Positions 847 to 47,356 of a stretch of 64,000 bases of DNA are shown here, in pieces. The stretch covers positions 11,413-75,412 of the forward strand of contig JAXHVR010000009.1 of NCBI GenBank assembly GCA_034189005.1. Direction: 5' to 3'. The DNA is from Cyanobacteriota bacterium (GTDB lineage: Bacteria; Cyanobacteriota; Cyanobacteriia; Cyanobacteriales; Microcoleaceae). The notes beneath the pieces were generated by a model. It made no database searches, was not told the origin of the DNA, and saw nothing but the letters and a program-made list of their open reading frames with translations. The position numbers were made by a program, and so were the translations under genes. Numbering within the stretch: position 1 is the first letter of the stretch; each line of letters begins with the position of its first letter.

Positions 847-1695
847 ATGAAAGAAATTGGCCGCAAGCCAGGTAGGTTTAGTAGTTGGCTGCCCGTTGAA
901 GATCGATGGTGGGTCAACTTTAACCTGCTGTTGACATTAGTACGAAGAGATTTAGAAGCTAGATATAAGGGTTCTATTCTCGGCAACCTGTGGCCATTAA
1001 TCAATCAGCTATCCCAACTCCTGATTTACACTTATGTCTTTTCCATCGTCCTCCAGGTAAAACTAAACCTCCAAGGACTGCCAACTGACAGTAAATTAAC
1101 CTTTGGACTGTGGTTGTTTGCCGGACTCGTACCGTGGTTAGCTTTTACTGGGGGTTTAACTCAGGCTGCTGCTTCGGTAATAGGACAGCCAAACTTGGTT
1201 AAAAAAGTGGTATTTCCTCTATCCTTGCTTCCCTTGGTTCCCATTTTTTCTACCTTCCTAGAAAGCACTTTTGGGTTAATCGCTTTAATAGCAATGGTAG
1301 GGTTATTAACTCACCAATTACATATTACTTTATTGCTGCTACCTTTGGTTTGGTTGCCTCAGCTTTTATTAACAGCAGGACTGGGATATTTTACTTCTGG
1401 CTTAACAGTATTTTTGCGGGATATTCCTCAGAGTTTGGGAGTAATTTTGAACCTATGGTTTTATTTGACTCCTATAGTTTATCCAGTGGATAAAATTCCC
1501 GAAAATTGGCAATTTCTGGTGTTTTGGTGCAATCCTTTAACAGCGATCGCCGAAGTTTATCGCGACCTGATTTTAACAGGAAAAGTGACTCACTGGATGG
1601 AGTTGGGAATTGCTAGCATAACTTCCTGCGTCGTCTTTTACATCGGGTTTCAAGTTTATAAAAAGTTGCGTCCAGCTTTTGCCGACGTCTTATAA
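847..1695 (+). CDS. wzm: ABC-2 type polysaccharide/O-antigen export permease (Wzm-like)
   Basis: 282 aa with about 6 hydrophobic segments. N-terminal LLLTLVRRDLEARYKGSILG motif is typical of Wzm/TagG/KpsM permeases. The ATPase partner lies directly downstream. Confidence 0.85.
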   Translation: MKEIGRKPGRFSSWLPVEDRWWVNFNLLLTLVRRDLEARYKGSILGNLWPLINQLSQLLIYTYVFSIVLQVKLNLQGLPTDSKLTFGLWLFAGLVPWLAFTGGLTQAAASVIGQPNLVKKVVFPLSLLPLVPIFSTFLESTFGLIALIAMVGLLTHQLHITLLLLPLVWLPQLLLTAGLGYFTSGLTVFLRDIPQSLGVILNLWFYLTPIVYPVDKIPENWQFLVFWCNPLTAIAEVYRDLILTGKVTHWMELGIASITSCVVFYIGFQVYKKLRPAFADVL

Positions 1696-1728
1696 CAATT
1701 AATAATTAATAATTAATAATTAACAATT
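1693..1728. repeat. AT-rich heptamer array (TAATAAT/CAATTAA)
   Basis: Period-7 tandem repeat starting at the wzm stop codon. Confidence 0.9.
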
Positions 1729-1846
1729 TGGTAACGGATGAGTTGTTGGTCCCCCCCCATAAATCTAGCTTGTAGTAATCGCTTTAGCGATTTATCTATA
1801 TGAATCGCTAAAGCGATCGCTACGAACGAACGCTGCTACATCTTTA

Positions 1847-1884
1847 CAACTAACAACTGACAACTAACAACTAACAACTAACAA
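1847..1884. repeat. heptamer array (CAACTAA)
   Basis: Period-7 repeat ending 2 nt before the wzt ATG. Confidence 0.9.
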
Positions 1885-1886
1885 GA

Positions 1887-3302
1887 ATGTCAGAAACCAT
1901 AATTTCTCTCCAAAATGTTTGCAAGTGTTTTAAACGGTATGCCCATCCAGCAGACCGTTTAAAAGAGATATTATTTCCGGGAAAAAGTCGGGCGGAAGAA
2001 TTCTGGGCGTTACGAGATATTAATATAGAAGTAAAAAGAGGGCATACTCTGGGAATTGTGGGGCGAAATGGTTCTGGTAAAAGTACCCTTTTGCAAATCA
2101 TTGTCGGAACTTTAACGCCGACAATGGGGGACGTACGAGTTATTGGTAGAATTTCCGCCCTGTTAGAGTTGGGCAGCGGATTTAATCCAGAATTTACTGG
2201 CAGGCAAAATGTCTTTTTTAACGGGCAACTTTTGGGTTTGAATACTCAAGAAATAGAAAAAAGATTCGATAAAATTGCTGGTTTTGCCGATATCGGCGAC
2301 TTTATCGACCAACCGGTAAAAACTTATTCTAGCGGGATGTTTATTCGGTTGGGTTTTGCCGTCGCTACTAGCGTGGATCCTGATATTTTAGTGGTAGATG
2401 AAGCTTTGTCGGTGGGAGATGAGGCTTTTCAGAGAAAGTGTTTTGCCCGCATTCAGGATATCCAAGAAAGGGGCGGGACGATTCTTTTCGTGTCTCATGC
2501 TGCTTCTACGGTGGTACAATTATGCGACTCGGCGATTTTGATGGATAGGGGAGAAATGCTGCTTTACCACAGCCCGAAATTTGTGGTTTCTAAGTATCAA
2601 AAATTGATTTATGCTTTCCCGGATAAAATACCGACTATTAGGGAGGAAATTAGAACTCTTCCTAATTTAACTGCTGATGATTATTCTTTGGGCGAAGATG
2701 CAGAAGAGGAGGAGGAAGAAGAAACTTCGGAATCTAATTCTACAACTGAGGCTGGAAATAATAATTCCAGCCATCCAGAGTCAGATTATGAGGAATATTA
2801 CGATGCCGAAATGATGCCTTCTAATACCATACATTACCCTAATAAGGGGGCGGAAATTATCGACCCTCATGTGATTGCTTTGGATGGTAGAAGGGTCAAT
2901 CATTTAATTAATCGTCGGGAATATATTTACACTTATAAAGTTGCTTTTAGAAATTCGACTTCTAAGGTTAGGTTTGGTATGTTGATTAAAACTTTAAGCG
3001 GGTTTGAGTTGGGAGGTGCTTCTTTACACGGTTACACTAAGTCGATAGACCGGGTTAAAGGTCAACAAACTGTTACTGTTAAGTTTAAGTTTCAATGCAT
3101 TTTAAATCCGGGAGTGTACTTTTTAAATGCTGGAGTGGTGGGAATGTCTGAAGACCATTTAACTTATTTGGCAAGGTGTATCGATGTGGCGATGTTTAGG
3201 GTGCAACATTGTACGGAACATTCCTGCGGTACGGGGGTTGTAGATTTGTTGGTGGAACCTAGTTTGAAGGTTCGCGATGGTTTGCTGGCAATTAATAATT
3301 AA
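1887..3302 (+). CDS. wzt: ABC glycan exporter ATP-binding protein with C-terminal carbohydrate-binding-type domain (Wzt-like)
   Basis: Walker A GRNGSGKST, signature YSSGM, Walker B ILVVDEALS. An acidic/Asn-rich linker (EEEEEEETSESNST) is followed by a ~150-aa beta-rich C-terminal domain as in Wzt_C. The ORF ends ...AINN* inside a heptamer array. Confidence 0.88.
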   Translation: MSETIISLQNVCKCFKRYAHPADRLKEILFPGKSRAEEFWALRDINIEVKRGHTLGIVGRNGSGKSTLLQIIVGTLTPTMGDVRVIGRISALLELGSGFNPEFTGRQNVFFNGQLLGLNTQEIEKRFDKIAGFADIGDFIDQPVKTYSSGMFIRLGFAVATSVDPDILVVDEALSVGDEAFQRKCFARIQDIQERGGTILFVSHAASTVVQLCDSAILMDRGEMLLYHSPKFVVSKYQKLIYAFPDKIPTIREEIRTLPNLTADDYSLGEDAEEEEEEETSESNSTTEAGNNNSSHPESDYEEYYDAEMMPSNTIHYPNKGAEIIDPHVIALDGRRVNHLINRREYIYTYKVAFRNSTSKVRFGMLIKTLSGFELGGASLHGYTKSIDRVKGQQTVTVKFKFQCILNPGVYFLNAGVVGMSEDHLTYLARCIDVAMFRVQHCTEHSCGTGVVDLLVEPSLKVRDGLLAINN

Positions 3303-3462: not shown

Positions 3463-3502
3463 TAAATTAATAATTAACCATAAAAAATTTACCATAAAAA
3501 AA

Positions 3503-4633
3503 ATGATAGTTGAGGCGGACGAAAGGATAGTTAAAAGTTGGTTGGAAGAGCAAACTAGGTATCCTCAAGATTTTAAGACTAATATCTCGGAAGCTGATGA
3601 GATGTTTTTATATGCTTTGCAGAATTTGGGCGATCGCGATCGCGCTACTATTCGTTATTATTTCATCGGTAAAAGAATACTTGATGCGGTAAAACAAGTT
3701 CTTAATTGGCACTTTGAGAAAACACAAATATCCTCTTTTCTCGATTTTGCTTGCGGTTACGGTAGGTTTACTCGCTATTTAATTCAGGAGTTGCCCCCAG
3801 AGAAAGTTTGGGTAGCGGATATTTACGCCGAGGCGGTGAATTTTCAACGGGAATATTTGGGGGTTAATGGCATTGTTTCGACGGTTGAACCGGAAGACTT
3901 TTCCCTGGAAAATAAGTTTGATTGTATTTTAGCTTGTTCCTTTTTTAGTCATATTCCCGAGAGAAGATTTGCCAGTTGGATGCAAAAGTTGTACGATTTG
4001 TTAACAAATGTAGGGGTGTTAATGTTTAGCGTCCACGATGAGGCGCTTTTGCCTTCTAATGTGGAAATAGGAAGTGGGGGAATTTTGTTTTCCCCTGCCA
4101 GCGAAAGTCGGTTTTTGGATAAGGAGGAATACGGCACTACTTTTGTTAATGAAGCATTTGTTAGGAAAGTAGTAGCATCGGTAAGCGAAGGCCAAGCATT
4201 TATTTGCCGCATAAAAGAGGGTATTTGCGGGGCTCAAGATTTGTATTTAGTAAGCAAAAAACCTTTCAAAGATTTGGATAGTTTTAATTTTCGATACCAT
4301 CCTAAAGCTGGTTTGGAGTATTGTCAGGCGATCGCTGACGATCGTATCCGTTTGAAGGGCTGGGCGATCGATCTCAACCCACAGGGTAAAATAGATGATA
4401 TTTTAATTGTTGTCAATGGCCAAATAGTTGAAAAATGCCAGCCAAGCTATTCGCGACCAGATCTGGCTGAAAGATTTCCAAATTCTGAGTTATTGAATTG
4501 CGGTTGGTCTTGCGATTTTGCCACGGATAAAGTATCCTTGGATGATGTTATTTCTATTAAGGCAGTTAATAATTATGGCTTGGAATGGATTATGGAGGTT
4601 AATACTCTAAAACAATTAACAACTAACAATTAA
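3503..4633 (+). CDS. class I SAM-dependent methyltransferase with C-terminal GW/RPD beta-module
   Basis: Motif I LDFACGYGRFTRYL. The C-terminal ~100 aa (RLKGWAID...SRPDLAERFP...GW) recurs in other proteins of the locus. Confidence 0.8.
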   Translation: MIVEADERIVKSWLEEQTRYPQDFKTNISEADEMFLYALQNLGDRDRATIRYYFIGKRILDAVKQVLNWHFEKTQISSFLDFACGYGRFTRYLIQELPPEKVWVADIYAEAVNFQREYLGVNGIVSTVEPEDFSLENKFDCILACSFFSHIPERRFASWMQKLYDLLTNVGVLMFSVHDEALLPSNVEIGSGGILFSPASESRFLDKEEYGTTFVNEAFVRKVVASVSEGQAFICRIKEGICGAQDLYLVSKKPFKDLDSFNFRYHPKAGLEYCQAIADDRIRLKGWAIDLNPQGKIDDILIVVNGQIVEKCQPSYSRPDLAERFPNSELLNCGWSCDFATDKVSLDDVISIKAVNNYGLEWIMEVNTLKQLTTNN

Positions 4634-4661: not shown

Positions 4662-7600
4662 ATGAATGCAAAAAATAGTAATAGTAAAAACCATAAAGCT
4701 TTTTTGATTTCTGGGATGCATCGTTCCGGTACTTCTTTGACAGCTTCTTTGCTGCAAAAGGCGGGGATTAATATTGGTAAAAAATTAGTGGGGCCGGAAT
4801 ATGGAAATATTAAGGGTCATTTTGAGAACATAGATTTTGTCAAATATCATCAGGAAATATTGCGATCGCAAAATATTGATGACTTGGGCAGCAACCTTTT
4901 AGACGAACAAGAAATTGTAATTGGAGAAAAGGAGAAAAAAAGAGGAAGACAGTTAATTAAAAAGCATCAAAAAGGTAAGGATTTGTGGGGGTGGAAAGAC
5001 CCTAGAACTACATTATTTTTGGATTTGTGGTTGGAATTACTGCCGTACGCAAACTTTATTTTTATCTTCCGATCGCCCTGGGAAGTAGTTGACTCTCTCT
5101 ATCGGCGATCGACGGATGAAAACTTGGTAGAATCTCCAGAGGTTGCCGTGAAAATGTGGCAGCTTTATAACCGCAGAATATTGAAATTTAATCAAAACTT
5201 ACCAGACCGATGCCTGATAGCTAACGTGGATAAGGTGGGTAAAAATCCTGAAGGTTTTATTAAAGCAATTAACGATAAATTTAATCTAAATTTAACAGCA
5301 CCATCGGAGGAAAACTTTGATGAATCTTTATTAATTAAAAATATAGAAAATACTCATCGCCCCTGGTTGATAGAGAAAAACTATCCCCAAACTTTAGAAA
5401 TTTATCGGCAGCTAAAAGCAGCGGCGATCGAAATCGAACCAGCGGACGATGGCGAAGAAAAAATTAGCGCCCCAACTTCAGAAAATTGGGCGTTTAGAGA
5501 TTGGTTCGACGTCCGCAGTTTAGAAAAACAAGCTCAGATTCTAGAATTAGAAGCTTTGCAATTACATAAAGATGTCGAAGACTGGCATAAATTATTTGAA
5601 GAAGCGCAAGAAAGAGCGATCGCCCTAGAAGCGGCATTAGGAGAAACGGAACTAAAACTAGACGGCAAAGAACTAAAACTACAAGAATCTTCAGAGAAAT
5701 TAGAAGGACTAGAAGCGGAACTCGGAGAAGCCCAAACACAGTTAGACGGTACTAAAGTTAAATTATTAGAATCTCAAACCAAAGTAGCAACTTTAGAAAG
5801 AAAACTCGGACAAACCCAAGCACAATTAGACGGTACCCAGGTCAAACTTATAGACTCCCAGAAAAAAGTCCTGGGATTAGAAACAGATTTAGGGCAAACT
5901 CAAGCCAGACTGGAAGGTTCTGAAACTCGCTTTCAAGAATCTTTAACTAAACTTGTGGGACTAGAAACTAAACTCGGTCAAACCGAGGTGCAATTAGAAG
6001 GGACTAAAACCAAATTACATCAGTCTCAGAAGCTTTTGTTAGGACTGGAAACAGAATTAGGACACGCTCAAATTCAGTTGAATACTACTCAATTGAAATT
6101 AGAAGAGTCCCAGAAGAAAATACAGGGTTTAGAGAAAGAATTGGGAGACACTCAGTTGCGACTGGATGGTTCTCAAGCACAAATAAAAGAGTCCCAGGCA
6201 AAAATAGGAGAGTTAGAAGGGGAACTGGGAGAAACCCAACAGCGACTGGATGGTTCTCAAGCACAAATAAAAGAGTCCCAGGCAAAAATAGGAGAATTAG
6301 AAGGGGAACTGGGGCAAACCCAACAGCGACTGGATGGTTCTCAAGGACAAATAAAAGAGTCCCAGGCAAAAATAGGAGAGTTAGAAGGGGAACTGGGAGA
6401 AACTCAGTTGCGACTGGATGGCAGTCAAAACCAATTAAAACAATCTCAATCAAAAATAGGGGAGTTAGAAGGGGAACTGGGGCAAACCCAACAGCGACTC
6501 AACGGCACTCAAGTCAAATTAGATGAGTCCCAGGGGAAAATACAGGTATTAGAAACGGAACTGGGGCAGACTCAACAACAACTACAGGGGACTCAGGCAC
6601 AACTGGGGCAAACTCAAGCAGAATTAACTCAAACCCAGACTGCCCTCGGTCAAACTCAAAGCGCCCTAAGCCAAACCCAGACATTATTAGGAGAAACTCA
6701 GACGGTTTTGGTGCAAACCGAGGTGACTCTGGGGCAAACTCAGGCAGAATTAATCGCCCAACGGCAGGAAACTCAAGAACTGCGGGAAGAAATTTTAGCC
6801 ATGAGATCTTCCAAGTTCTGGAAACTGCGGGAGAAATGGTTTAATTTCAAACGGAGACTGCGGGGGTTGCGATATTGCATCCGCAAGGCTTCGCCAACGC
6901 GCTTTGTCTTCTCCCTCGACACTCCCACCAGTTGGGAAATTTCCAGCCCTCAATTAGAAGTAGTTGGCTGGTGTTTTGCGCAGGGCGCAAACTTATTTAA
7001 CAACAATAACGGAAATCTTGAAGTGGATGCCATCCGCGCCCGCATCGCAGACCGAACCTTTGACGGCAGCTACGGCATCGAACGCCTCGACGTCGCCCAA
7101 AAACACGACCATACCCCCGCCGCCCAAAATTCGGGCTTCCAAATTCAACTGGAACTACCCCCAGGACGGCATCAACTGGTACTAGAAGCAAAAGATAGGA
7201 AGGATAAATGGCATAGCATCGCCTCCTATCCCATCATCGTTTCCACGGTTCAAGCAAACTTCGATGCCCCGGCAACCTTCGAACAACGGGAAGGAATGGT
7301 GTTATTTGCCGGCTGGTGTTGCCATCCAGAGAAGAAAATTTCCAAATTAACCCTGCGTTGCGGCGATGTTTCTATCGACTGCGCCTACGGTTTGCGTCGC
7401 AAAGATGTCGCCGAAGCTTTCCCACAATGGGTTGGCAGTTTGGATAGCGGTTTCGAGGCAACTGTAGAGTTACCGCCGGGAGAATGGCCGCTAATTTTAG
7501 AGGCAACTTTAGATACCGGGGAAATTGTCGGTTTTCAATGCCAGAATAGTTTGAAAGTCCGCCGCTACGGCGTTTTAGACCGCGCTAAAGACAAGCGCCT

Positions 7601-10600
7601 GGAGTTGTTGCAGCTTGGGGCTGCGGTTCGCAAGCGCGCCGCTGAGAGGAAACAGCGTTTGGGGCGGATCGTACCTTTGCCCTGGGAGTTGCCCCGCGTC
7701 GCCCGCCGGGTTATCGAGATGTATCGGGAACAAAAAAGTTTTGGGGAGTTGTCGCCGCCGGCTGGTTTTCTGATGCCGGTGTCGGTGGAACCTTACGAAG
7801 CTTGGTTGGAGGTGAATAAATGGGGCGATCGCGCTTTCGATCGTCTGACATCTCGCTTGGAAGGGGCGGCGGCGGATAGTTTGCCGAAAATTTCCGTGGT
7901 GATGCCGGTTTATAACCCGCCAGTGGAGTTTTTACGGGAGGCGATCGCCAGCGTAACCAACCAAGTTTACCAAAACTGGGAACTCTGCATCGCCGACGAC
8001 TGCAGTACCGACCCGGAAATTCGCCAAATTTTAAGCGAGTTGGCAGCGGACGATCCAGCCGACGACGACCGTAGAACAGGCGTCTCGCCTGTTCCAGCAG
8101 AAAGCGACGACCGTAGAACAGGCGTCTCGCCTGTTCCAGCAGACCCTCGCATCAAAATAAAATTTCGCGAAGAAAACGGCAACATCAGCGCCGCGACCAA
8201 CACCGCCGCCTCTCTGGCGACGGGAGACTTTATTCTATTCCTAGACAACGACGACGAACTAACTCCCGACGCCCTAGCAGAAGTCGCCCTCTATCTGGCA
8301 GAACATCCAGAAACCGACTTCCTCTATTCCGACGACGACAAGATCGATACGGAAGGCGATCGCTTCGACCCTCAATTCAAACCCGAATGGTCTCCAGAGT
8401 TGCTTCTATCCTTCATGTACATGGGGCATCTCTGCGCGGTTCGCCGAGAAATCTTTGAAAAAGTCGGAGGTTTGCGAGTCGGTTACGAAGGTTCCCAAGA
8501 CTACGACTTCGCCCTCCGGGCAACGGAAGTTTCCCGCAAAGTTGCCCATTTACCGTTAATCTTGTACCACTGGCGAACCGCCCCCGGTTCCACTGCCGTT
8601 TCCGGCGGCGAAAAACCTGCCAGTTTTGCAGCGGGGCGGCAGGCGGTACAAGATGCCTTGGATCGTCGCGGGGTTTCGGGGAAAGTAGATCGACCGGACT
8701 GGGCGATCGCTGAGAATTTGGGAATTTTTGCCCCGGAGTTTCCCCAGACCGGCCCTTCGGTGACGATTATTATTCCTACTAAAAATCAACTCCATTTTAT
8801 CAAGGGTTGTCTGGAGTCTCTGGAGAAGACTTCTTATCAGAATTATCGGGTTTTTGTCATCGATAATGAAAGCGACGATCCGAAAACTTTGGAGTATTTG
8901 GAAGGTGTTGGAGGATCCCCCCCTGCCCCCCTTGAAAAGGGGGGAGAAAGAAAGGTTGGAAAAGCGGGAGAAGTACGGGTTTTAAAAATACCTAATGAGG
9001 GGGGGAAATTTAATTTTGCCGCCATTAATAACCGCGCTGTCGAACAAGCAGAAACAGATTATATTCTATTTCTTAATAACGACACGGAAATTATTACCGA
9101 AAATTGGTTGAGTCAGATGGTTGGTTACGCCCAACTCCCCGGAGTCGGTGCCGTTGGGGCGAAGCTGATTTATCCAGACGGACGGATCCAACACGCGGGA
9201 ATAATTCACGGTTTGCATCACGGTCTGGCGGGTCATGCTTTTAAGTTAATGCCTTCGGAAAATCGCGGTTATTTGTCTCAAGCTGCGGTAGGGAGAAATT
9301 ATTCGGCGGTGACTGCTGCTTGTATGTTAACTCATAGGGAATTGTTTTTAGAAATGGGCGGTTTTGACGAGGAGAAATTCGCCGTTGCTTATAACGATGC
9401 GGACTACGGTTATCGACTTTTAGAAAAAGGTTATCGTTCGGTTTATTGCCCCGAAGCGGAGTTAATTCATCGGGAAGGAACCAGTCGCGGTTTTGTGGAT
9501 AATCCCCGGGAGGAAGCAATTTTTCGCCGCCGCTATGCCGAGATGGTAGATAAGTTTTATAGTCCCCATTTCTCTCTGGCAAATGAGTTATTCGAGGTTC
9601 AACCTCGGCGCTATTTTCTATCCCCCCCAACTCCCCTTGGAAAAGAGGAAGACCGTAGAACAGGCATCTTGCCTGTTGATGATGCGGAACAAGAAACCCG
9701 GTTTTTTGGAAAAACCGGGTTTCTGGGGGGGAGGAAAATTACATTATTAATGTGCAGTAATTCTTTAGATTTTACTGGGGCGCCTTTACATCAATACGAA
9801 ATTGCAGTTCAACTAGCTTCTGAAGGAATAGTTAAACCCATAATATTTTCTCCCACGGAAGGTCCGTTGCGTAAGGTTTACGAGGAGAAAAATATTGAAG
9901 TAATAGTGTTAGATAATCCCCTGGAACATATTTATCAACGGGATGATTACGATGCCGCATTGGAAAGCTTTGCTAAAGAAATAGAAGGGCTAAATGCTGA
10001 CGTAATTTATGCTAATACTTTAGAGAACTTTTTCCTAATAGATATTGCCCAGATGCTAAATATTCCTAGCGTTTGGAACGTTCACGAAAGCGAACCTTGG
10101 CAAACTTATTTTAATCGCTTCGGACCGGAAATAGCGACTCGCGCTTTGGAATGTTTCCGCTATCCTTATCGGATTATTTTTGTGGCGGATGCGACGCGGG
10201 ATAAATATTTACCTCTCAACAGTCACCATAATTTTACGGCAATTCATAACGGTTTGGATTTGGAATTGTTGAAAAGTTCGGCTAAGAAATGGTCTCCAGA
10301 GGAGGCGAGGGCGGCTTTGGGAGTTAATTCCGATGAGATTGTTTTGTTAATTTTGGGGACGGTTTGCGAAAGAAAAGGTCAAGAAGATTTGGTTAAAGCA
10401 ATACCTTATATTGGGGCGGAATGGGTAGGTAAAATTAAGTGTTTTATTGTAGGCGATCGCCCCAGTTTATATAGCAGTCAATTATCTGCTTTGGTGGCGG
10501 GTTTACCAGAGGAGTTAAAAGGGCGCATAGAAATAGTTCCAGAAACTCCCGATACTGCCAAATATTATCAAGCAGCAGATATCTTCGTTTGTACTTCGCG

Positions 10601-10895: not shown

Positions 10896-10912
10896 TATTA
10901 AAGCAAGCAAAT

Positions 10913-11176
10913 ATGAAGAACAAATTTACTTCGAGAAACTCTCAGACTGACTGGGAACGCCTAGACGCGATGACTGATGAAGATATAGATTTTTCCGATT
11001 GTCCACCCCTGACGGAGGAGTTTTTTGAAAATGCTACTCTAAGAATACCAGCAGTTCGAGCTCGTAACTTAATTGAGCTAGATGCTGACGTGATGGCGTG
11101 GTTTCGAGAGCAAGATGCAGAGTATAGAACGACGATTAATTCAATATTGCGACGTTATGTAGAGAGTAGGAAATAG
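10913..11176 (+). CDS. BrnA/DUF4415-like antitoxin-family small protein (orphan)
   Basis: TDWERLDAMTDEDIDFSDCPPLTEEFF ... LDADVMAWFREQ..YRTTINSILRRYV resembles the BrnA family. Start trimmed to the ATG at 10913, downstream of the previous stop. No BrnT-like partner seen. Confidence 0.55.
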   Translation: MKNKFTSRNSQTDWERLDAMTDEDIDFSDCPPLTEEFFENATLRIPAVRARNLIELDADVMAWFREQDAEYRTTINSILRRYVESRK

Positions 11177-11450
11177 CTTGGAAACACCAGAGATCTCAGA
11201 AACCGGGTTTCTCAATTAACTTCTCGCTTGAGAGGCAAAAGTTATGCGAGAAACCCGGTTTCTTGTGAGTTAAAAAACATCTTTTGCAACGTCCATCTAA
11301 CCATAGGTGGGGGAACTGCATTGCCGTAAAGAATATAGCGATAACGATCGCTCTCTTCCTCTTAGGTCGCGCTTCGCTTCTTCTTTGTATTCTACCATAC
11401 AGAAAAATTACCAAATGTTTGATAATTGTCTATGGTAAAAGGAGAGAAAA

Positions 11451-13574: not shown

Positions 13575-13580
13575 ATTGTT

Positions 13581-15017: not shown

Positions 15018-15043
15018 TAATTAATAATTAATAATTAATAATT
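15008..15043. repeat. heptamer array (TAATAAT) containing the MscS-cNMP stop
   Basis: Period-7 repeat. Confidence 0.9.
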
Positions 15044-15054
15044 GTCCCAATTAT

Positions 15055-15141
15055 GATTATGAAAAATTAGGGGGCCAGAAACCCGGTTTCTCAAAGAAAC
15101 CGGGTTTCTAAAATATCGCGAACGATCTACGGCTTGCTATA
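15055..15141. mobile_element. TATAGCAA-family element, 5'-truncated copy
   Basis: GATTATGAAAAATTAGGGGGCCAGAAACCCGGTTTCTCAAAGAAACCGGGTTTCT...CGGCTTGCTATA. Confidence 0.8.
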
Positions 15142-15219
15142 GTTTGAAAAAACCCGGTTTCTGTTCCACGCCCAGATCTCCCGTTTCACTTTCAAAGATG
15201 CATCCAGGAGGACAGCCTA

Positions 15220-24685: not shown

Positions 24686-24732
24686 CAATTGTTAATTGTT
24701 AATTGTTAATTATTAATTATTAATTATTAATT
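24686..24732. repeat. heptamer array (complement of CAATTAA/TAATAAT) containing the stop of minus-strand CDS 24720..25628
   Basis: Period-7 repeat. Confidence 0.9.
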
Positions 24733-37059: not shown

Positions 37060-39237
37060 ATGGCACAGAATACGACGGCGAGTTTCGAGCAACCGGTAAT
37101 TTTAGAAAAGCCAGCGATTTTATCGCGGGTATTTATGTGGATAATTATGCTCGTAAGCGCCAGTTCAATAGTTTGGGCTTATTTCGCCGAGCTAGATCAA
37201 AACGTACCAGCAATAGGTCAACTAGAACTGAAAGACGGTGCGAGAGACGTTCAAGCGCCTACCAGCGGTACGGTGGTGAGACTTCATGTGGAAGGGGGCG
37301 ATCGCGTGGAAAAAAATCAGCCCATACTAACTTTCAGACCGACAATTCCTAAAGCAGATTTAGCTTCTCTGCTAGAAGTGAAAGAGGCCCTCGAAAAAGA
37401 AAATGAATTCTACGAAGATTTAGTCGAAGGAAGAATACGGCAAGGAGAGCGTCCCGATTTAGAAGCATTGGCCAAAGACCGCCAAGCGCGACAAGCAGAA
37501 ATAGATACTTACGAAGCTCTGATAAATCAGCTATATCGCAACTCTGGCAGAAGAATTAATATAGACTCCGGCCAGCGAGCGCTTTATGATAATGCCATAG
37601 CAGAATATAGCTCTAGGATAGGAGCAATTGAATTACAAATAGAAGAGCTGCAAAAACAATTGCAACAAGCCAGGCAAGAGGAAGAAGCGGCAAGAGATCG
37701 CTTGAGAGTGGCTCAAACTCAATTGGAATTTACCCGACAGCAAGTTCAATTCGCCCAACAACAATTAGACAATAGCAGGCAGCAAATAGTATTTGCTAAC
37801 GAACAGTTAGAGAACTCCAAGCAACAGTTAGAGTATGCGAAGGAACAGCTAGCTAATTCTCAGGAGCAATTAAAGTATTCAGAAGAACAATTACAACTGG
37901 CTAGAGGACAGTTTACGAAATCAGAAGAGGTTTTGCAGTCAAATCAGGAAATTTTAGATAATATTTCGCCACTGGTGGAAGAAGGAGCAATAGCTCAGTT
38001 GCAGCAAAAACGGCAGCAACAAGAAGTTATTCGAGGTGAAAGCGAATTATTAGGTCAGCGCGATCGCATAGAATCTCGTTCTGCAGAAATAAATACCAGA
38101 AGAGGAGATATTAATTCCCGCCGGGCAGAAATAAATAACCGAGAAGGAGATGTGACCGCCCGCCTGGCAGAAATTAAAAGGATAGAAGGAGATATTAATT
38201 CCAGACAAGCGGAAGTCAGTTCCCGTTTAGCTAGTATTAATAGCAGTGAAGGAGAAGTTCAAGCACTCCAAGCAGAAATTAGGCGCAATCAATTAGAACA
38301 AGAACGCATCGCTGTTTCTATAGAAAGAACTAGGGAACAGTTGCAAAATACCAAAGATTCTTGGGCGAGAGAGCTATATAACAGAATTGCCACTAATAAA
38401 ACGGCCCTCGCTGGCATAGATTCTCAGTTTAGCAGGCTACAACTGGATAATAAAAAAAGACTAACGGAGATGAACGCTCAAGTAGAAAAGCTGACAGAAA
38501 GCCGGAACGACCAAGTGTTAAAATCACCCGTATCGGGGATAGTATTCGATTTAACACCAGGAAGTAAAGAGGAATCTTCGTTAGATATAGGGAAAGACCC
38601 AATCTGTCAATATGTGATTAATGAAATTATAAAACCAGGAGATGTTAAGCCGAAAAAATGCGAGGAAGCTAATTATGAAGCGCAGCAAACGGAACCACTG
38701 CTAACAATTTTGGACGATGACGAAGGGTTGGAAGCAGTAGTTTATATTCAAAACAAGGATATAGCTTTAATATTGAATGCTTTGCGGGAAAAACGGAAAA
38801 CATTGGAACCGTTAGACGGTGAGGAGTTAGCTGGTGGGGAAGTAGTAGATTGCGAACCGGGTAAAAGTTGCGTTTGTCCCGAACTTAGGGAAAACCGAGA
38901 AAAGTTGGGAATAAACGACCTGCAATGCGTTCCAGTAGAGGTGCAGGTACAAGCTTTACCTGCTAATGAATTTGGTACCGTTGCAGGGGAGGTAATCTCT
39001 ATTAGTAAGGATGCCATACCACCGGACCCCCAGCAAGAAAGACCTTTCTTTTCTTTTGAGACTACCATTAAGTTAAGTCGTCAGACGGTGACTTTGGACA
39101 GGGAAAGCGATTTAGAGATTGCTCTGCAGAATGGCATGGCGGTTAATTCTAATATTAATGTCGGTAAGCGATCGGTATTAGAGCTATTCTTGAGCCGCTT
39201 TACCAGTAAGTTTAAGGGTTTGACTACTGTTAATTAA
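37060..39237 (+). CDS. HlyD-family membrane fusion protein with very long coiled-coil hairpin
   Basis: N-terminal TM, lipoyl-like GTVVRLHVEGGDRVEKNQPIL, two blocks of 14-residue repeats, and a C-terminal beta-barrel half (SPVSGIVFDL ... GMAVNSNINVGKRSVLE). Confidence 0.85.
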   Translation: MAQNTTASFEQPVILEKPAILSRVFMWIIMLVSASSIVWAYFAELDQNVPAIGQLELKDGARDVQAPTSGTVVRLHVEGGDRVEKNQPILTFRPTIPKADLASLLEVKEALEKENEFYEDLVEGRIRQGERPDLEALAKDRQARQAEIDTYEALINQLYRNSGRRINIDSGQRALYDNAIAEYSSRIGAIELQIEELQKQLQQARQEEEAARDRLRVAQTQLEFTRQQVQFAQQQLDNSRQQIVFANEQLENSKQQLEYAKEQLANSQEQLKYSEEQLQLARGQFTKSEEVLQSNQEILDNISPLVEEGAIAQLQQKRQQQEVIRGESELLGQRDRIESRSAEINTRRGDINSRRAEINNREGDVTARLAEIKRIEGDINSRQAEVSSRLASINSSEGEVQALQAEIRRNQLEQERIAVSIERTREQLQNTKDSWARELYNRIATNKTALAGIDSQFSRLQLDNKKRLTEMNAQVEKLTESRNDQVLKSPVSGIVFDLTPGSKEESSLDIGKDPICQYVINEIIKPGDVKPKKCEEANYEAQQTEPLLTILDDDEGLEAVVYIQNKDIALILNALREKRKTLEPLDGEELAGGEVVDCEPGKSCVCPELRENREKLGINDLQCVPVEVQVQALPANEFGTVAGEVISISKDAIPPDPQQERPFFSFETTIKLSRQTVTLDRESDLEIALQNGMAVNSNINVGKRSVLELFLSRFTSKFKGLTTVN

Positions 39238-39745: not shown

Positions 39746-41518
39746 ATGCTTAAACATTTCCCCAGATTATCTGACAACAAAATACTTTTATTAATTCTCT
39801 ATATTCTCCCAGTTGCTCTACTTTTATGGTTCGTGGCTAGCTTTAGCGTTAACGTTCCTTTTTGGGACCAGTGGAGATTGGTAAATATGTTCGATAAAGT
39901 AGGCAGCGGCAATGCTAGTTTTTCGGACTTTTTTGAAGTTCACGGACACCACCGCATCTTTTTCCCAAAAATTATTATTACTGCCCTAGCTTTTGCTTCT
40001 GGATGGAATACTCAATACGAGATAATTTGCAGCGTTATTTTTGTGGTTATAACCTTTTGGTTCCTGTGCAAAATTGCCGCGAGTAAAACGCAAAATAAAG
40101 GCGATAATTTAATGCATATCGCCAATATTTTAACCTGTATGTTGCTGTTTTCTTTGGTTCAACATCAAAACTGGTTGTGGGGGTTTACGCTTTTTTGGTT
40201 TTTGACTAATTTATGTTTGGTAATGGCGGTGTTTTTTCTCTGTTGTAATGAGAAGCGATCCTGTGGGGGCGAACAGGGGAGGCACCTGTTCTACGCCGGT
40301 ACTTCCTGTTTTATCGGCAGCTTTACTTTAGCCCAAGGTTTGCTCGCTTGGCCGATTCTAATTCCAGCAGTTTTCTCTCTGGAAGGCAACTTCCGTCAAA
40401 AACTCAAAAGAGTTTTAATCTGGATGGGAATTTTTCTAGTTTCATGTTTCATCTATTCTCTTAATTACAACCCAATTCGCGAACCACAACCATTTTTATT
40501 TTTGGAACGACCTTTCGTAGTAATTAATTACTTTTTCACCGTTCTAAGTTTGCCTCTGGTGCGGGTTCCCATTCCTTCAATTATCGTCGGCTTTTTATTA
40601 TTCTCGTGTTTCCTATTTTTTTGTTTCTATTTTATAAGAATAAGAGGCAAGATGCTGGTTCTACATCCAGAGGCATTGCCTTGGTTGTCCGTAGGTTCCT
40701 TCGCCATCATCTCATCCCTTTCTATTACCGCAGGACGGGCCCAATACGGCGTAGAAAATGCAATTATTTCCTCCAGATATACCACGACATCGGTCTTATT
40801 AATCGTTGCTTTAATTCATTTATTGGCATTGTTTTGGCGTCAAAACTCTCTCTCGAATTCAATATTTACTATTGGTGCGGTCATTTTAACAGGTATTATC
40901 GCTGTAAACTCGATTTATGTTATTAACAGAATTAAAACAGAATTGCCTTATATGCAAGGTAGAAAAGAGTGCTTGGAAATTATTAATTATCTGGAAAAGT
41001 CTGAATTTATGCAAGAAGCGCCAGAGAGTTGTTTGGTATTATTAAACGGCAAAACTTGGTTGGTCAGAGAAGGGGCAGAAATTATGGATAAATTGGGATG
41101 GCGTGAATTTCCCGACGAGATGGAATTTGTTAGCACGCCAGAACGGGTTTATGGTTATTTGGATACGCCTCCAGATGGGTTGGGGGAAACAGGCAAGATG
41201 CCTGTTCTACGGAATGAGGCGGTAACTGTAACTGGATGGGCGACTATTCCAGAAAGGGAGGAAACGCCGAATTTAGTGTTATTATCTTCAGGGGAAAATC
41301 GAACTTTTTTTGCCAATGCTTATGTAGTATTAGACAGCCCCGATCTAGCTAAAACTTTAAAGTCAAAGGAATACAAAAAAGCGAGATGGCAAGCGGAGTT
41401 TTCGGGTAAAGATTTAGGAATGGGAGAGGGGGCGATCGCTGCTTGGGTATATAATGCCAAAGACAAGCAATTTGTTAAATTAAGCGACGAATTAAAAATA
41501 GAAGTTAAAAAGCCTTGA
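39746..41518 (+). CDS. polytopic membrane protein (GT-C-like?) with C-terminal GW/RPD-type beta-module
   Basis: About 12 hydrophobic segments and a soluble C-terminal ~120 aa (VTVTGWATIP...DSPDLAKTL). Same architecture as 44531..46309. Confidence 0.7.
   Translation: MLKHFPRLSDNKILLLILYILPVALLLWFVASFSVNVPFWDQWRLVNMFDKVGSGNASFSDFFEVHGHHRIFFPKIIITALAFASGWNTQYEIICSVIFVVITFWFLCKIAASKTQNKGDNLMHIANILTCMLLFSLVQHQNWLWGFTLFWFLTNLCLVMAVFFLCCNEKRSCGGEQGRHLFYAGTSCFIGSFTLAQGLLAWPILIPAVFSLEGNFRQKLKRVLIWMGIFLVSCFIYSLNYNPIREPQPFLFLERPFVVINYFFTVLSLPLVRVPIPSIIVGFLLFSCFLFFCFYFIRIRGKMLVLHPEALPWLSVGSFAIISSLSITAGRAQYGVENAIISSRYTTTSVLLIVALIHLLALFWRQNSLSNSIFTIGAVILTGIIAVNSIYVINRIKTELPYMQGRKECLEIINYLEKSEFMQEAPESCLVLLNGKTWLVREGAEIMDKLGWREFPDEMEFVSTPERVYGYLDTPPDGLGETGKMPVLRNEAVTVTGWATIPEREETPNLVLLSSGENRTFFANAYVVLDSPDLAKTLKSKEYKKARWQAEFSGKDLGMGEGAIAAWVYNAKDKQFVKLSDELKIEVKKP
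40271..40294 (+). repeat. in-frame GAACAGG..CCTGTTCTAC palindromic element (variant loop)
   Basis: GAACAGGGGAGGCACCTGTTCTAC inside CDS 39746..41518. Confidence 0.85.
41188..41210 (+). repeat. in-frame AACAGGCAAGATGCCTGTTCTAC element
   Basis: Identical 23-mer to 17044..17066 and 3357..3379. Encodes TGKMPVLR at the start of the C-terminal module. Confidence 0.95.
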
Positions 41519-41570
41519 CAGTTCCGCCAATATTTGTTTAAATTTTCTAGTGAAGCAATTGGGGTGGATT

Positions 41571-42008
41571 ATGACATTAATCGAAACATTAAAAGAAAAT
41601 CGGCTCATGCAAACAGAACGAGAAATTAATAGTTTTGAAACGGCATTAGCTGAAATTGCTAATAATCCCAATGAAGAAGATTTACCCAAATATCATTTAA
41701 TTCTGGACGATCGATGCCAACAACCCGAAGTAATGTTCGGTTTAGTTCACTTTCTGGAATCTTTTGAACCTGAAACTCAACTTCAAGCATTTATAAAAGT
41801 AATTCCTCAATTAGCGCTCGATGCTCCAGAATGGACCAAAATTTTACATAATCGTATTTTAAATGATGAATTTGCTTGTAATACTTATTTAAAAATTTTG
41901 CGATCGCTTAATTCAGAAAAGCCTCATTTTATTTATTATTTATTAGAAGAAAGTGCGGCAAATCATCTGAAGCGAGAATTGATTAGTATGTCAGCAGCAA
42001 ACCAATAA
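41571..42008 (+). CDS. hypothetical protein
   Basis: ORF preceded by a GGTGGA RBS-like element at the ATG at 41571. No motif recognised. Confidence 0.5.
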   Translation: MTLIETLKENRLMQTEREINSFETALAEIANNPNEEDLPKYHLILDDRCQQPEVMFGLVHFLESFEPETQLQAFIKVIPQLALDAPEWTKILHNRILNDEFACNTYLKILRSLNSEKPHFIYYLLEESAANHLKRELISMSAANQ

Positions 42009-42023: not shown

Positions 42024-42920
42024 ATGACGATCGCCAATTGCCCTATATGTCAATCTCCCGAATTTAGCTATTATCCAGCGGGGCAAAATTACACCTTAGC
42101 AAAATGTCGCCAATGCGATATGGTGTGGGATAATAAGCCCCCGGCAGAACCGACGGCAATCTATCAGGCTAATTATTATCAAAACGAAGGAGGTAAAGGA
42201 GGTTATTCCGACTATTTAGCAAGCATGAAAATGAATAGCAAAACATTTAACCGCCGCCTGGTAGCTGCCGGGAAAAAGTTAGGAGGCGATATTGCATCCG
42301 CAACGCTTCGCGAACGCCCTTTATTATTAGATGTCGGTTGCGCTTTGGGAGATTGTTTGTTAGAAGCAAAAAAATTGGGATGGGAAAAGCCTAGGGGTTT
42401 AGAAGTATCGGAATATGCGGTAGAATTTGCTCGCAGCAGAGACTTATTAGTATTCCAAGGAGACTTATTTAATCATTCTTTCCAGCCCAACTCTTTCGAT
42501 TTAATAACTCTCCAAGATATGCTAGAACATACCACAAATCCTCTATCTCAACTCGAAGCAGCTTATCAACTGCTAAAACCGGGGGGCTGGATTTTAATAA
42601 CTACTCCCAACGTGGATGGAATCTTAGCTAAATTACTCGGTTCTTTCTGGTATCATTACAAACCTGGAGAACACTTGACATATTTTTCGTTAAAGACTAT
42701 AAATATTGCATTAGAAAAGACTGGCTTTGTCGAGATAGAATCGAAACCTACCAGTAAATCTCTAAGCGTGGAATATATCTTGGACAGGCTGAAATATTAT
42801 CAACCTCAAGTATTCTCAATTTTGCTTAAATTAGCTCGGAAGTTAAATTTAGATCGATTAGTTTTTGAAGTGGGAACAGGGGAGTTAGAAGCGTGGGGAC
42901 AAAAACCGACAAATCGCTGA
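42024..42920 (+). CDS. Zn-ribbon class I SAM-dependent methyltransferase
   Basis: CPICQS..CRQCDM, motif I LLDVGCALGD, and LKPGGWILITTPN. The stop TGA lies in the loop of an AATCGCTGAAGCGATT hairpin repeat. Confidence 0.8.
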   Translation: MTIANCPICQSPEFSYYPAGQNYTLAKCRQCDMVWDNKPPAEPTAIYQANYYQNEGGKGGYSDYLASMKMNSKTFNRRLVAAGKKLGGDIASATLRERPLLLDVGCALGDCLLEAKKLGWEKPRGLEVSEYAVEFARSRDLLVFQGDLFNHSFQPNSFDLITLQDMLEHTTNPLSQLEAAYQLLKPGGWILITTPNVDGILAKLLGSFWYHYKPGEHLTYFSLKTINIALEKTGFVEIESKPTSKSLSVEYILDRLKYYQPQVFSILLKLARKLNLDRLVFEVGTGELEAWGQKPTNR

Positions 42921-42958: not shown

Positions 42959-43507
42959 ATGAACGTAATTAAAACAGAAATACCAGATGTTTTATTAATC
43001 GAACCCAAAGTTTTTGGGGACGATCGCGGCTTCTTTTTTGAAAGTTTCAACCAGAAAAGTTTCTCAGACAAAACAGGAGTAAATCTTGACTTCGTTCAAG
43101 ACAATCATTCCCGTTCTGTCAAGGGAGTTTTGCGAGGTTTGCACTACCAAATAGAACAAACTCAAGGTAAGTTACTCAGAACAGTTGTCGGAGAAATATT
43201 CGATGTCGCCGCAGACATTCGCAAAAATTCTCCAACCTTTGGCAAGTGGGTAGGTTATATGCTAACTGCGGAAAATAAACGACAACTTTGGATACCGCCG
43301 GGTTTTGCCCACGGTTTTTTAGTAGTATCTGAAGTGGCGGAAGTTTTGTACAAAGCGACGGATTATTACGCGCCGCAACACGAACGTTCTATTCTTTGGA
43401 ACGACCCAGATATTGGCATTGAGTGGCCGATAGAAGGGATAACGCCAATTTTATCTAAAAAAGACGAAGCAGGTAAAACATTTAAAACAGCGGAAATATT
43501 TGAATGA
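42959..43507 (+). CDS. rfbC: dTDP-4-dehydrorhamnose 3,5-epimerase
   Basis: FGDDRGFFFESFN..VQDNHSRS.KGVLRGLHYQ..QGKLLRTV.GEIFDVA.DIR..SPTFGKW..WIPPGFAHGF is a classical RmlC. Confidence 0.93.
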   Translation: MNVIKTEIPDVLLIEPKVFGDDRGFFFESFNQKSFSDKTGVNLDFVQDNHSRSVKGVLRGLHYQIEQTQGKLLRTVVGEIFDVAADIRKNSPTFGKWVGYMLTAENKRQLWIPPGFAHGFLVVSEVAEVLYKATDYYAPQHERSILWNDPDIGIEWPIEGITPILSKKDEAGKTFKTAEIFE

Positions 43508-44382
43508 AAATATTATTAACAGGACTGGACGGACAATTAGGCAAACAATTGCAATCTTTCCTCGCACCTTTGGGGGATTTAACTACTGTAGGACGGGCAA
43601 CTTTAGACTTAGCAAATGCTGAGGATATTTATAAAGCGATCGAGGAAGTTAAGCCGGAAATAATTGTTAATGCGGCAGCTTATACTGCGGTTGACAAATC
43701 GGAAAGCGAAGTGGAATTAGCCACGGCAGTTAACGGTACGGCCCCAGGGATTTTAGCCGCCGAAGCTGAAAGGTTGGGGGCGACTTTAATTCATGTTTCG
43801 ACGGATTATGTATTTGATGGAACTCGAAGCGTTCCTTATTTGGAAAGCGATCCTACTAATCCCCTCGGTGCTTATGGCGCTTCTAAGTTAAAAGGTGAAG
43901 AAGCAATTGAGAAGACCAATGCCAAGTATGTTATTATCAGAACTGCTTGGGTTTATGGTGCTTATGGCAAGGGAAATTTTGTCAAAACTATGCTGAGATT
44001 GGGGAAAGAAAGGGAGGAATTGCGAGTAGTTTACGACCAAGTTGGAACTCCGACTTGGACGGGAGATTTGGCAGGGGCAATTAGTCAATTAATACCCCGT
44101 TTGAGTGGAGATAATTTGGGGATTTATCATTATACCAATAGCGGGGCTATTAGTTGGTACGATTTCGCGATCGCCATTTTTGAAGAAGCAGAAAAACTCG
44201 GTTTTCCTCTTAAGATTAAACGAGTGGTTCCTATTACTACTGCCGAATATCCAACACCGGCAAAACGCCCTGCTTATTCAGTATTAAATTGCGCCAAAAT
44301 TTCCCAAGTTCTCGAAACTTATCCGCCCCACTGGCGGGAAGGTCTCCGACAAATGTTGAAGGAGTTGGCAGAGATTTCGTAG
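43504..44382 (+). CDS. rfbD: dTDP-4-dehydrorhamnose reductase
   Basis: MKILLTGLDGQLG Rossmann start, STDYVFDG, YGASKLKGE. ATGA overlap with rfbC. The stop TAG lies within a GTAGAACAGG repeat. Confidence 0.93.
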   Translation: MKILLTGLDGQLGKQLQSFLAPLGDLTTVGRATLDLANAEDIYKAIEEVKPEIIVNAAAYTAVDKSESEVELATAVNGTAPGILAAEAERLGATLIHVSTDYVFDGTRSVPYLESDPTNPLGAYGASKLKGEEAIEKTNAKYVIIRTAWVYGAYGKGNFVKTMLRLGKEREELRVVYDQVGTPTWTGDLAGAISQLIPRLSGDNLGIYHYTNSGAISWYDFAIAIFEEAEKLGFPLKIKRVVPITTAEYPTPAKRPAYSVLNCAKISQVLETYPPHWREGLRQMLKELAEIS

Positions 44383-44518
44383 AACAGGCGTCTCGCCTGT
44401 TATCCGTAGAACAGGCGTCTCGCCTGTTTCCGTAGAACAGGCGTCTCGCCTGTTTCCGTAGAACAGGCGTCTCGCCTGTTATCCGTTACCGCTGGAACAG
44501 GCGAGACGCCTGTTCTAC
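44378..44518. repeat. array of four direct copies plus one inverted copy of GTAGAACAGGCGTCTCGCCTGTT
   Basis: 27-29-nt period with no unique spacers. The first copy contains the rfbD stop codon. Confidence 0.92.
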
Positions 44519-44530
44519 AATTATTTTTTT
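44458..44530 (+). terminator. terminator-like long hairpin formed by the last direct and the inverted GTAGAACAGG copies, followed by a T-run
   Basis: A 23-bp stem (44458-80 pairs with 44495/6-44518) followed by AATTATTTTTTT. Confidence 0.4.
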
Positions 44531-46309
44531 ATGTTAATGAAAGAAAAGCTAAATTGGGGATTTATTATCCCAACAATTATCGGATTTTTACTACCAGCAA
44601 TCTACGTTTTATATCTGATATCGCAAGCGGGGCATCTGCTCAATTTCGACTATTGGTGGATGATAAAAAATATCTACTCAATAGATGGCTTTTCGACAAA
44701 TCCTTTCGACTGGATGTTTCGCGCCAACGAACATTTTGTCCTAATTCCCGCTATTATTTACGCCCTCAATATTGTTATTACCAAAGGCTCAAATATTGGT
44801 CTGTGTTTGGCAACATTTTTATTAGCTGTAGTTCAAAGTGTTTTTTTAATTAAATTATTGCCAGAAAAGGTAACAGGGAATAGCAGGGTTCTGCGGTTAT
44901 TAATAATCTGTATTTCTCTATTTAACTTTACCCCCGCAGCCGCCCATAATTGGATGCGAGGTTATAGCGGCGTGCATTGGGTTATTGCTAATTTATTTGT
45001 TATTGCTTCTATTTATTGCCAGACAAAATTATTACAATCTAATCCTAACAAATGGGCAATTGCTAGCATCATCTTCGGCATTTTAGGCTGCATCAGTTAC
45101 AGCACTCCGCTAGCATTATGGCCGATATTATGTGCTGCTTCGCTTTTAATGCGGTTGCCAAGGCGGATTATTATTGCTTATTTTACCTGTACAATTTTAG
45201 TCGTAGGTACTTATTTTATTACCTACAAAACCCCCTCCCACCATCCATCTTTATCCCAAGTTAATCTTGTCGATACCCTCGCCTATATTCCTGTTTATTT
45301 AGGAGCAATTTTCAGTCATAATATTCCGGTTGCTTTAATAATTGGAACTTTCGGTTTAATTTTGGCGGCAGTTTTTCATCTTTATTGGTTATTATCAAAA
45401 CCGTTGAATAATATCGACTGGTTGCCGTGGTTGTCGATAATAATCTACAGTTTTGGAACGGCATTAATGGCAGCAATTAGTCGTTCTGGTTTTGGCATCG
45501 AACAAGCGATCGCCTCCCGTTACGCTACCCTCCCCGCCCTTTTTTGGTTGAGTCTAATCGTCTTAACAATTTTTAGGATAAACCAGACACAAATCTCCTC
45601 TATTTCCAAGGGGAAAATCTCAGAAACCCGGTTTTTTAAAAAAACCGGGTTTCTAGATCGGCTATTTAGAAAAAAGCAATATTTTCTAATACCAGTAGTC
45701 GCAGTGGTGACAGTTTTAACAATCTTAACCTACGGAGTCGGGGGCAAAACTGCGGAGGCGATCGCCCTAAGAGCAACCTATCAACCTTTAGTAGCATTAT
45801 CCGTACAACTTAATATCGCCGACCCCCTATTAATTCAGGAAAAAGTAGGCAACAGACCGGAAGCTTTTATTAGCTTATTAGATGCATTAAAAGCTCATAA
45901 TTTAGTGCCTTTTCATAAGAATATTAAAAATGATAATTTTTGCGTTCCATTAGGAATAAAAATTGATAGCAATCTATTAACAAACGAACCCCAAGAAAAC
46001 GTGCCCGGATATTTCGATCCCATAACCCAATATACCCCCGCAACAGCCAGAGTAAAAGGTTGGGTGGGGGAAAGCGACAAAATTAAATGTATTGCCATCC
46101 TCAACCAAGATAGAATAGTAAGAGGTTTTGGGATGTCTGGCTTTCCCCGCCCCGACGTAGCCGAAATTATGGGTTCCGAGTTTGAGTCATCGGGCTGGAA
46201 AGGATACATCGAAGCATCCCCAGACGATGTTTTAGCTGCCTACGTTTCCTTGAAAAACCGTCCCGGTTGGGTAGTATTGCGCGATAAGCGCAGTTTAATT
46301 AATAATTAA
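44531..46309 (+). CDS. polytopic membrane protein (GT-C-like?) with C-terminal GW/RPD beta-module
   Basis: About 12 hydrophobic segments. C-terminus reads ARVKGWVGE...FPRPDVAEIMG...SGWKG. An in-frame palindromic repeat encodes SETRFFKKTGFL. Ends ...LINN* in a heptamer array. Confidence 0.7.
   Translation: MLMKEKLNWGFIIPTIIGFLLPAIYVLYLISQAGHLLNFDYWWMIKNIYSIDGFSTNPFDWMFRANEHFVLIPAIIYALNIVITKGSNIGLCLATFLLAVVQSVFLIKLLPEKVTGNSRVLRLLIICISLFNFTPAAAHNWMRGYSGVHWVIANLFVIASIYCQTKLLQSNPNKWAIASIIFGILGCISYSTPLALWPILCAASLLMRLPRRIIIAYFTCTILVVGTYFITYKTPSHHPSLSQVNLVDTLAYIPVYLGAIFSHNIPVALIIGTFGLILAAVFHLYWLLSKPLNNIDWLPWLSIIIYSFGTALMAAISRSGFGIEQAIASRYATLPALFWLSLIVLTIFRINQTQISSISKGKISETRFFKKTGFLDRLFRKKQYFLIPVVAVVTVLTILTYGVGGKTAEAIALRATYQPLVALSVQLNIADPLLIQEKVGNRPEAFISLLDALKAHNLVPFHKNIKNDNFCVPLGIKIDSNLLTNEPQENVPGYFDPITQYTPATARVKGWVGESDKIKCIAILNQDRIVRGFGMSGFPRPDVAEIMGSEFESSGWKGYIEASPDDVLAAYVSLKNRPGWVVLRDKRSLINN
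45622..45654 (+). repeat. in-frame AGAAACCCGG-loop-CCGGGTTTCT hairpin in a loop of the membrane protein
   Basis: Encodes SETRFFKKTGFL. Confidence 0.95.
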
Positions 46310-46393
46310 TAATTAATAATTAATAATTAATTATCTAATTCAAAGGCCAACCAATAACCCAATTGTTAATTGTTAATTGTTAATTGTTAATTA
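46297..46393. repeat. TAATAAT array, 35-bp spacer, then inverted AATTGTT array, filling an intergenic spacer
   Basis: Period-7 repeats on both sides. Contains the stop of 44531..46309 and ends at the ATG at 46394. Confidence 0.9.
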
Positions 46394-47356
46394 ATGTCAA
46401 ACCGCCTAAGTTTTGTAATACCAGTTCGCAACGAAGAAGCGACCATAAAACCTCTATTCTATCGCATCAACGAAGTCATGGTTCGAGAAGGAATAGATAG
46501 TTATGAAGTGCTGTTTATCGACGATGGCAGTAGCGATCGCTCTTGGAAAGAAATAACAGAACTAATCCCCCAACATCCCACCTTAATTAAAGGTATCAAA
46601 CTCCGCCGCAACTTTGGCAAGTCAGCCGCCCTTTCCGCTGGTTTTGGCAAAGCAACTGGTAACATTATTTTTACTCTCGACGGCGACCTTCAAGACGACC
46701 CCGCAGAAATTCCTAAATTTTTGCAAAAACTAGAGTCGGGATACGATCTAGTCACCGGCTGGCGAAAACGTCGCAACGATCCGCTTTCTAAGACCTTGCC
46801 CTCGAAACTATTTAATCGAGTAACATCTCTGCTGACTGGAGTCAAATTGCACGATTTTAATTGCGGTTTCAAAGCTTATCGAAAAGAAGTCTTGGACTGT
46901 ATTAAATTGTACGGAGAATTGCATCGATATATTCCAGTTTTAGCGCACAGTCTCGGATTTAGAATTACCGAAGTTGCAGTAGAACACCATCACCGGCAAC
47001 ATGGCAAATCGAATTATGGATTAGAACGTTACGCCCGAGGTTTTCTCGATCTTTTGACCGTATTGGCAACTACTCATTATTTACGCAAACCGGGTCATTT
47101 GTTTGGTGGTTTGGGATTATTGGTGGGTGCCGTTGGCGTAGCAGCTTTGATTTATTTAAGCATATTATGGTTGATGGAAATTAGACCCATCGGCACTCGT
47201 CCTTTATTCTTTTTTGGGATTTTATGCGTCATTTTATCGGTGCAATTGATATCTTTAGGAGTCTTGGCGGAGTTGGTTACTAGGAATGTCAACGATGATT
47301 ATGTCGAGAAGCAGATTTGCGAGGTTATTGATGAGTCGGAGAAAAAGAGCGATTAA
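46394..47356 (+). CDS. GT2 polyprenyl-phosphate glycosyltransferase (GtrB/ArnC/DPM1-like)
   Basis: FVIPVRNEE..FIDDGSSD..GKSAALSAGF..TLDGDLQDDP..GWRKRRND plus two C-terminal TM helices. Confidence 0.88.
   Translation: MSNRLSFVIPVRNEEATIKPLFYRINEVMVREGIDSYEVLFIDDGSSDRSWKEITELIPQHPTLIKGIKLRRNFGKSAALSAGFGKATGNIIFTLDGDLQDDPAEIPKFLQKLESGYDLVTGWRKRRNDPLSKTLPSKLFNRVTSLLTGVKLHDFNCGFKAYRKEVLDCIKLYGELHRYIPVLAHSLGFRITEVAVEHHHRQHGKSNYGLERYARGFLDLLTVLATTHYLRKPGHLFGGLGLLVGAVGVAALIYLSILWLMEIRPIGTRPLFFFGILCVILSVQLISLGVLAELVTRNVNDDYVEKQICEVIDESEKKSD

Follow-up and report, generated by a model that had tools for sequence, protein, structure and literature searches.

We identified a cell-surface supercluster in a marine Microcoleaceae-type cyanobacterium, in which the gene for an oscillin-family RTX protein is accompanied by a dedicated secretion pump and enzymes that add sugars, found repeatedly next to such proteins across cyanobacteria. 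The window (the whole 64,000-nucleotide stretch analyzed) holds in its first 47 kb three separable modules rather than one unit. Module A is a Wzm/Wzt pathway for a capped polysaccharide and includes a WbbB-like sulfotransferase, coiled-coil ruler and polymerase; module B is the oscillin gene; and module C comprises sugar enzymes, a PPIase, a type I secretion system (T1SS), GT-C-like membrane proteins and rmlCD (Table 1). Cutting across these modules is a deeper core, a new finding, formed by the RTX protein, a PF12000 GT4, a parvulin PPIase, an uncharacterized 302-aa family, a cNMP-ABC transporter, HlyD and the rml genes. The best reading, which we rate at slightly better than even, is that the unfolded RTX cargo would be glycosylated in the cytoplasm in a process coupled to T1SS export, with module A working separately. 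If so, the locus provides the first concrete gene candidates for the making of oscillin, a long-known glycoprotein of gliding-associated surface fibrils.

Table 1. Features of the window (positions in the window; the evidence column gives E-values unless otherwise stated).
Feature	Position	Strand	Evidence or remark
Small conserved UCP020893-like gene	106..636	+	Left edge of module A; precedes wzm in relatives
Wzm, ABC-2 permease of polysaccharide exporter	847..1695	+	PF01061 ABC2_membrane 8e-23
Wzt, ATPase with C-terminal carbohydrate-binding module	1887..3302	+	ABC_tran 2e-20, Wzt_C 4e-25
SAM methyltransferase with C-terminal ~80-aa beta domain	3503..4633	+	Pfam
2077-aa terminator-ruler-polymerase	4662..10895	+	Pfam, PDB
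Lineage-specific insertion splitting the glycan genes	10868..16293	+	Pfam; outside the system
Methyltransferase	16576..17787	+	Pfam; module A
291-aa accessory ORF, weakly nucleotidyltransferase-like	17876..18751	+	Weak Pfam hints only, 0.01-0.05
Stand-alone sulfotransferase	18790..19545	+	Sulfotransfer_1 3e-20; module A
Methyltransferase	19681..20385	+	Pfam; module A; 68-91% identical orthologs
PF12000-type GT4, directly upstream of oscillin gene	20433..21695	+	Glyco_trans_4_3 1e-72; deep core
Oscillin-family RTX protein, 684 aa, presumed T1SS cargo	22264..24318	+	HemolysinCabind 5e-42
Terminator-like hairpin, 13-bp stem then T run	24332..24360	+	14 nt past oscillin stop; consensus match only
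302-aa protein, uncharacterized family	24720..25628	-	Deep core; start is M48 of a 349-aa ORF, set from 14 orthologs
Methyltransferase-glycosyltransferase (MT-GT) fusion	25637..27331	-	Pfam; module C
1559-aa enzyme: methyltransferase, GT4, GT2, helical region, GT41-like domain	28101..32780	+	Pfam; module C
Parvulin-type PPIase without signal peptide	33009..33770	+	Rotamase 1.5e-9; deep core
T1SS ABC transporter: cNMP-binding, C39-like, transmembrane and ATPase domains	33873..36887	+	TIGR01846 730 bits, above cutoff
HlyD-family membrane fusion protein, 725 aa, unusually long coiled coil	37060..39237	+	HlyD_3
590-aa polytopic membrane protein	39746..41518	+	~10-12 TM segments, C-terminal beta domain
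Orphan Imm30 immunity-protein gene	41550..42008	+	Imm30 5e-35; insertion outside the system
Methyltransferase, module C tail	42024..42920	+	Pfam
RmlC and RmlD, last two dTDP-L-rhamnose steps	42959..44382	+	Pfam: RmlC 42959-43507, 2e-73; RmlD 43504-44382, 7e-107
592-aa polytopic membrane protein, paralog of 590-aa protein	44531..46309	+	10-12 TM segments, C-terminal soluble domain
ArnC/GtrB/PgfS-like polyprenyl-phosphate glycosyltransferase	46394..47356	+	GT2 3e-30; two C-terminal TM helices

ORF listing and Pfam scans recovered, between positions 847 and 47,356, every gene class where a preliminary description of this DNA had placed it (wzm/wzt, glycosyltransferases, methyltransferases, sulfotransferases, rml, RTX and PPIase-ABC-HlyD). 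Pfam assigned six SAM-methyltransferase domains (the four stand-alone enzymes in Table 1 and the N-termini of the MT-GT fusion and the 1559-aa enzyme) and two sulfotransferase domains (one at the N-terminus of the 2077-aa protein). At least ten Leloir glycosyltransferase domains were counted, where at least nine had been claimed: two to three GT2 and a GT4 in the 2077-aa protein, the PF12000-type GT4, a Glyco_trans_1_2 in the MT-GT fusion, the GT4, GT2 and GT41-like domains of the 1559-aa protein and the GT2 of the ArnC-like enzyme. The secretion set begins 8.7 kb past the stop codon of the RTX gene, in keeping with the earlier estimate of about 10 kb. The proposal that all these genes form a single island did not hold. 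The modules are contiguous in the order A-B-C in the window's clade, Okeania and Dapis, and B and C adjoin in Kamptonema; in Microcoleus all three are scattered and in Tychonema they are likewise apart. The window yielded no tRNA or Rfam match and Pfam detected no integrase or transposase among the scanned ORFs of at least 100 aa, hence the locus bears no marks of a mobile island. Many other genomes group these same gene sets, so the clustering lies far outside what chance would produce.

The product of module B carries 13 strict GGxGxD motifs and has full-length homologs (40-50% identity) in Okeania, Dapis, Microcoleus, Tychonema and Kamptonema, one of which bears the name Oscillin, in agreement with the original suggestion of an oscillin-like protein. 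It lacks an N-terminal hydrophobic segment and a signal peptide, and its conserved C-terminus closes with acidic and hydrophobic residues (..SDIIII). By sequence, it belongs to the oscillin family over its full length and carries a predicted C-terminal T1SS signal. Known to be a glycoprotein (PMC3034196, PMC12475490), oscillin is encoded by a gene that contributes to motility in Arthrospira (PMC11632167). The type I export set inferred earlier was also borne out: the ABC transporter scored above the TIGR01846 cutoff and its best PDB match was HlyB (2e-170). The C39-like domain has a glycine (G303) at the position of the catalytic Cys, as G or A is found there in 15 orthologs; the exporter is an HlyB-type ABC transporter whose C39-like domain is predicted to be catalytically dead. 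The partner HlyD matched TIGR01843 below cutoff (3e-35) and has one N-terminal TM segment; its coiled-coil region contains 42-nt repeats.

The genes surrounding the cargo and its pump recur in at least five gene orders, in taxa that range from Oscillatoriales to Nostocales and include higher-GC members, so that the expected co-conservation of RTX and glycan genes was largely observed; in Microcoleus, Tychonema and USR001 the oscillin homolog adjoins none of these genes. The RTX, 302-aa, MT-GT, GT41 giant, PPIase and ABC genes form one contiguous block in the window's clade and likewise in Dapis, Okeania, Kamptonema and O. nigro-viridis. Using the 302-aa protein as a seed, we found the core in other orders as well: RTX, GT4::PPIase fusion, RTX, RTX, 302-aa gene, RmlA, RmlC and RmlD in Nostocales; RTX, NHL protein, 302-aa gene, GT4, PPIase, cNMP-ABC and HlyD, all on one strand, in L102 (GC 59%); and rmlDC-HlyD-ABC-PPIase, then the 302-aa gene, then RTX in L072. 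Of the 48 loci spanning 8 kb or more, 19 carry an RTX-like ORF, mostly less than 1 kb from the 302-aa gene. Many of the counted loci are close relatives, so the independent adjacency events are few, roughly five or six gene orders. The rml genes adjoin T1SS or core genes also in L018, L044, L072, L082 and Microcoleus-type loci.

Members of the 302-aa family, which comprises 654 clusters at 50% identity and has no relative in Pfam or PDB, share an invariant E126-D127 and a near-invariant D128. Their genes adjoin RTX genes in many loci and elsewhere are fused to methyltransferases, PF12000 GT4, Glyco_trans_1_2 or TPR. The PPIase gene always immediately precedes the ABC gene, and its product weakly matches the TIGR04500 peptide-maturation family. 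Hydrophobic segments are absent from both proteins, as they are from all Leloir glycosyltransferases (PF12000 GT4 included), methyltransferases and sulfotransferases, which speaks for work in the cytoplasm. The PF12000 GT4, 83-95% identical across genera, is fused in frame and without stops to the PPIase in seven Nostocales-type loci; in L102 its gene has the 302-aa gene on one side and PPIase-ABC-HlyD on the other. Of the glycosyltransferases here, it is the strongest candidate to act on the cargo. In Microcoleus, however, the same gene stands last in the Wzm/Wzt module, well away from both RTX and T1SS, so the enzyme's acceptor could be a lipid-linked glycan.

The GT41 (OGT/SPY)-like domain noted previously in the 1559-aa protein is real, with PDB matches to SPINDLY (7e-21), T. 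terrenum OGT (1e-20), XcOGT and human OGT, all of them protein glycosyltransferases, and is kept in all T1SS-linked orthologs and only in those. At about 60% identity, the GT4 domain of the same protein resembles domains of Nostocales proteins whose genes lie near wzm/wzt, which points to polysaccharide work; these relatives match residues 272-793 only. Orthologs of the MT-GT fusion (59-83% identity) are found in all Oscillatoriales loci, and the gene is probably co-transcribed with the 302-aa gene. The 590-aa membrane protein, encoded after HlyD in all Oscillatoriales loci, has an invariant D41 in its first outer loop and no Pfam match. Its top Foldseek matches were ArnT, AftB, AglB, PglB and Pmt4, weak at E 3e-3 to 0.3 from a model of pLDDT 65; it is probably a GT-C-fold glycosyltransferase. 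Some sources label its homologs 'YfhO family'. Trichodesmium encodes a 66% identical ortholog of the tail methyltransferase after its homolog of this protein. The 592-aa paralog is 24-25% identical to homologs of the 590-aa protein over the N-terminus and has orthologs in Trichodesmium and Microcoleus-type loci. In the latter, orthologs of the ArnC-like enzyme (72-73% identity; ArnC model 5e-53 and PgfS model 1e-43, each below cutoff) adjoin the 592-aa gene and rmlD. The presence of GT-C-like proteins and an ArnC-like GT2 in the locus implies periplasmic glycan steps, which the cytoplasmic route does not need.

For the favored cytoplasmic route, the deeply conserved cargo maturation and export set would draw on module C and on one module A gene, the PF12000 GT4; besides this enzyme, its members are the 302-aa protein, the PPIase, the ABC transporter, HlyD and the dTDP-rhamnose genes. 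Oscillin would be made in the cytoplasm, where low Ca2+ would leave the RTX repeats unfolded. With the chain held or isomerized by the PPIase, the GT4 may then attach sugars, perhaps rhamnose, and the 302-aa enzyme may take part here or at a different step. Extension of the glycan and its capping with O-methyl groups could, in Oscillatoriales, fall to the MT-GT fusion and the MT-GT4-GT2-GT41 giant. The C39-like domain would receive the cargo for export, C-terminus first, through a channel of ABC, HlyD and an unlinked TolC, with the transporter possibly gated by cNMP, and extracellular Ca2+ would fold oscillin into fibrils. The glycosylation and export interpretation of the preliminary description is partly supported, and the enzymes it singled out differ from the soluble cytoplasmic proteins that are tied most tightly to RTX and T1SS.

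Two stretches lie outside the system. The insertion in module A contains a BrnA-like ORF (10868-11176), a dCache-HAMP adenylate cyclase (11451-13574), an MscS-cNMP channel (13581-15017) and a PBP-like protein (15220-16293). Okeania (L045) and L053 have no such insertion between the giant gene and the next methyltransferase, and the PBP gene is retained in L002, an 84% relative. The Imm30 gene is absent from the matching position in Trichodesmium (L044). Neither the insertion nor the Imm30 gene, nor the conserved 302-aa gene, was mentioned previously.

Cargo of T1SS normally bypasses the periplasm. An S-layer-style en bloc transfer through Wzm/Wzt and an O-oligosaccharyltransferase is not supported, because it would need that compartment, Pfam found no WsaB/PglL-type enzyme (Wzy_C domain) among the window proteins, the enzymes closest to the RTX/T1SS pair are soluble and cytoplasmic, and the Wzm/Wzt module is self-standing next to ruvB. 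In Okeania (L045) and Microcoleus vaginatus (L046), 54-55% identical ORFs matching 106..636, a gene with no match in the Pfam copy used, occupy the same place upstream of wzm, with ruvB beyond; Wzm is 66-77% identical in both. The 2077-aa protein combines a PAPS-type sulfotransferase (residues 15-211; motifs RSGTS and KDPR), a coiled coil (~286-720), two tandem beta domains (745-1000), GT2, GT2 and GT4. The sulfotransferase and GT block are kept in all 120 listed homologs, across which the coiled coil ranges from 181 to 512 aa, eleven of its distinct lengths fitting one heptad-spaced series. Two methyltransferases share domains with other proteins: the N-terminal ~80 aa of the 16576..17787 methyltransferase (orthologs in L002, L004, L005 and L043) are homologous to the beta domains of the 2077-aa protein (hhalign probability 85-88%, 3e-6), and the C-terminus of the 3503..4633 methyltransferase to the C-terminal domain of the 592-aa membrane protein (91%, 1e-6). 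The 291-aa ORF occurs only in some of the closest relatives (L002, L004, L011) and is absent from L010, Dapis and Okeania; in the last two genera the stand-alone sulfotransferase is duplicated and fused to a methyltransferase. We infer that module A separately makes a lipid-linked polysaccharide that would be length-measured, capped with sulfate and methyl groups and moved out by the ABC-transporter route. The two GT-C-like proteins and the ArnC-like GT2 may then decorate a glycan periplasmically. The self-standing Wzm/Wzt unit adjoining ruvB has a ruler architecture of the WbbB/WbdD type, in line with module A being a separate WbbB-type pathway (framework in PMC11231755).

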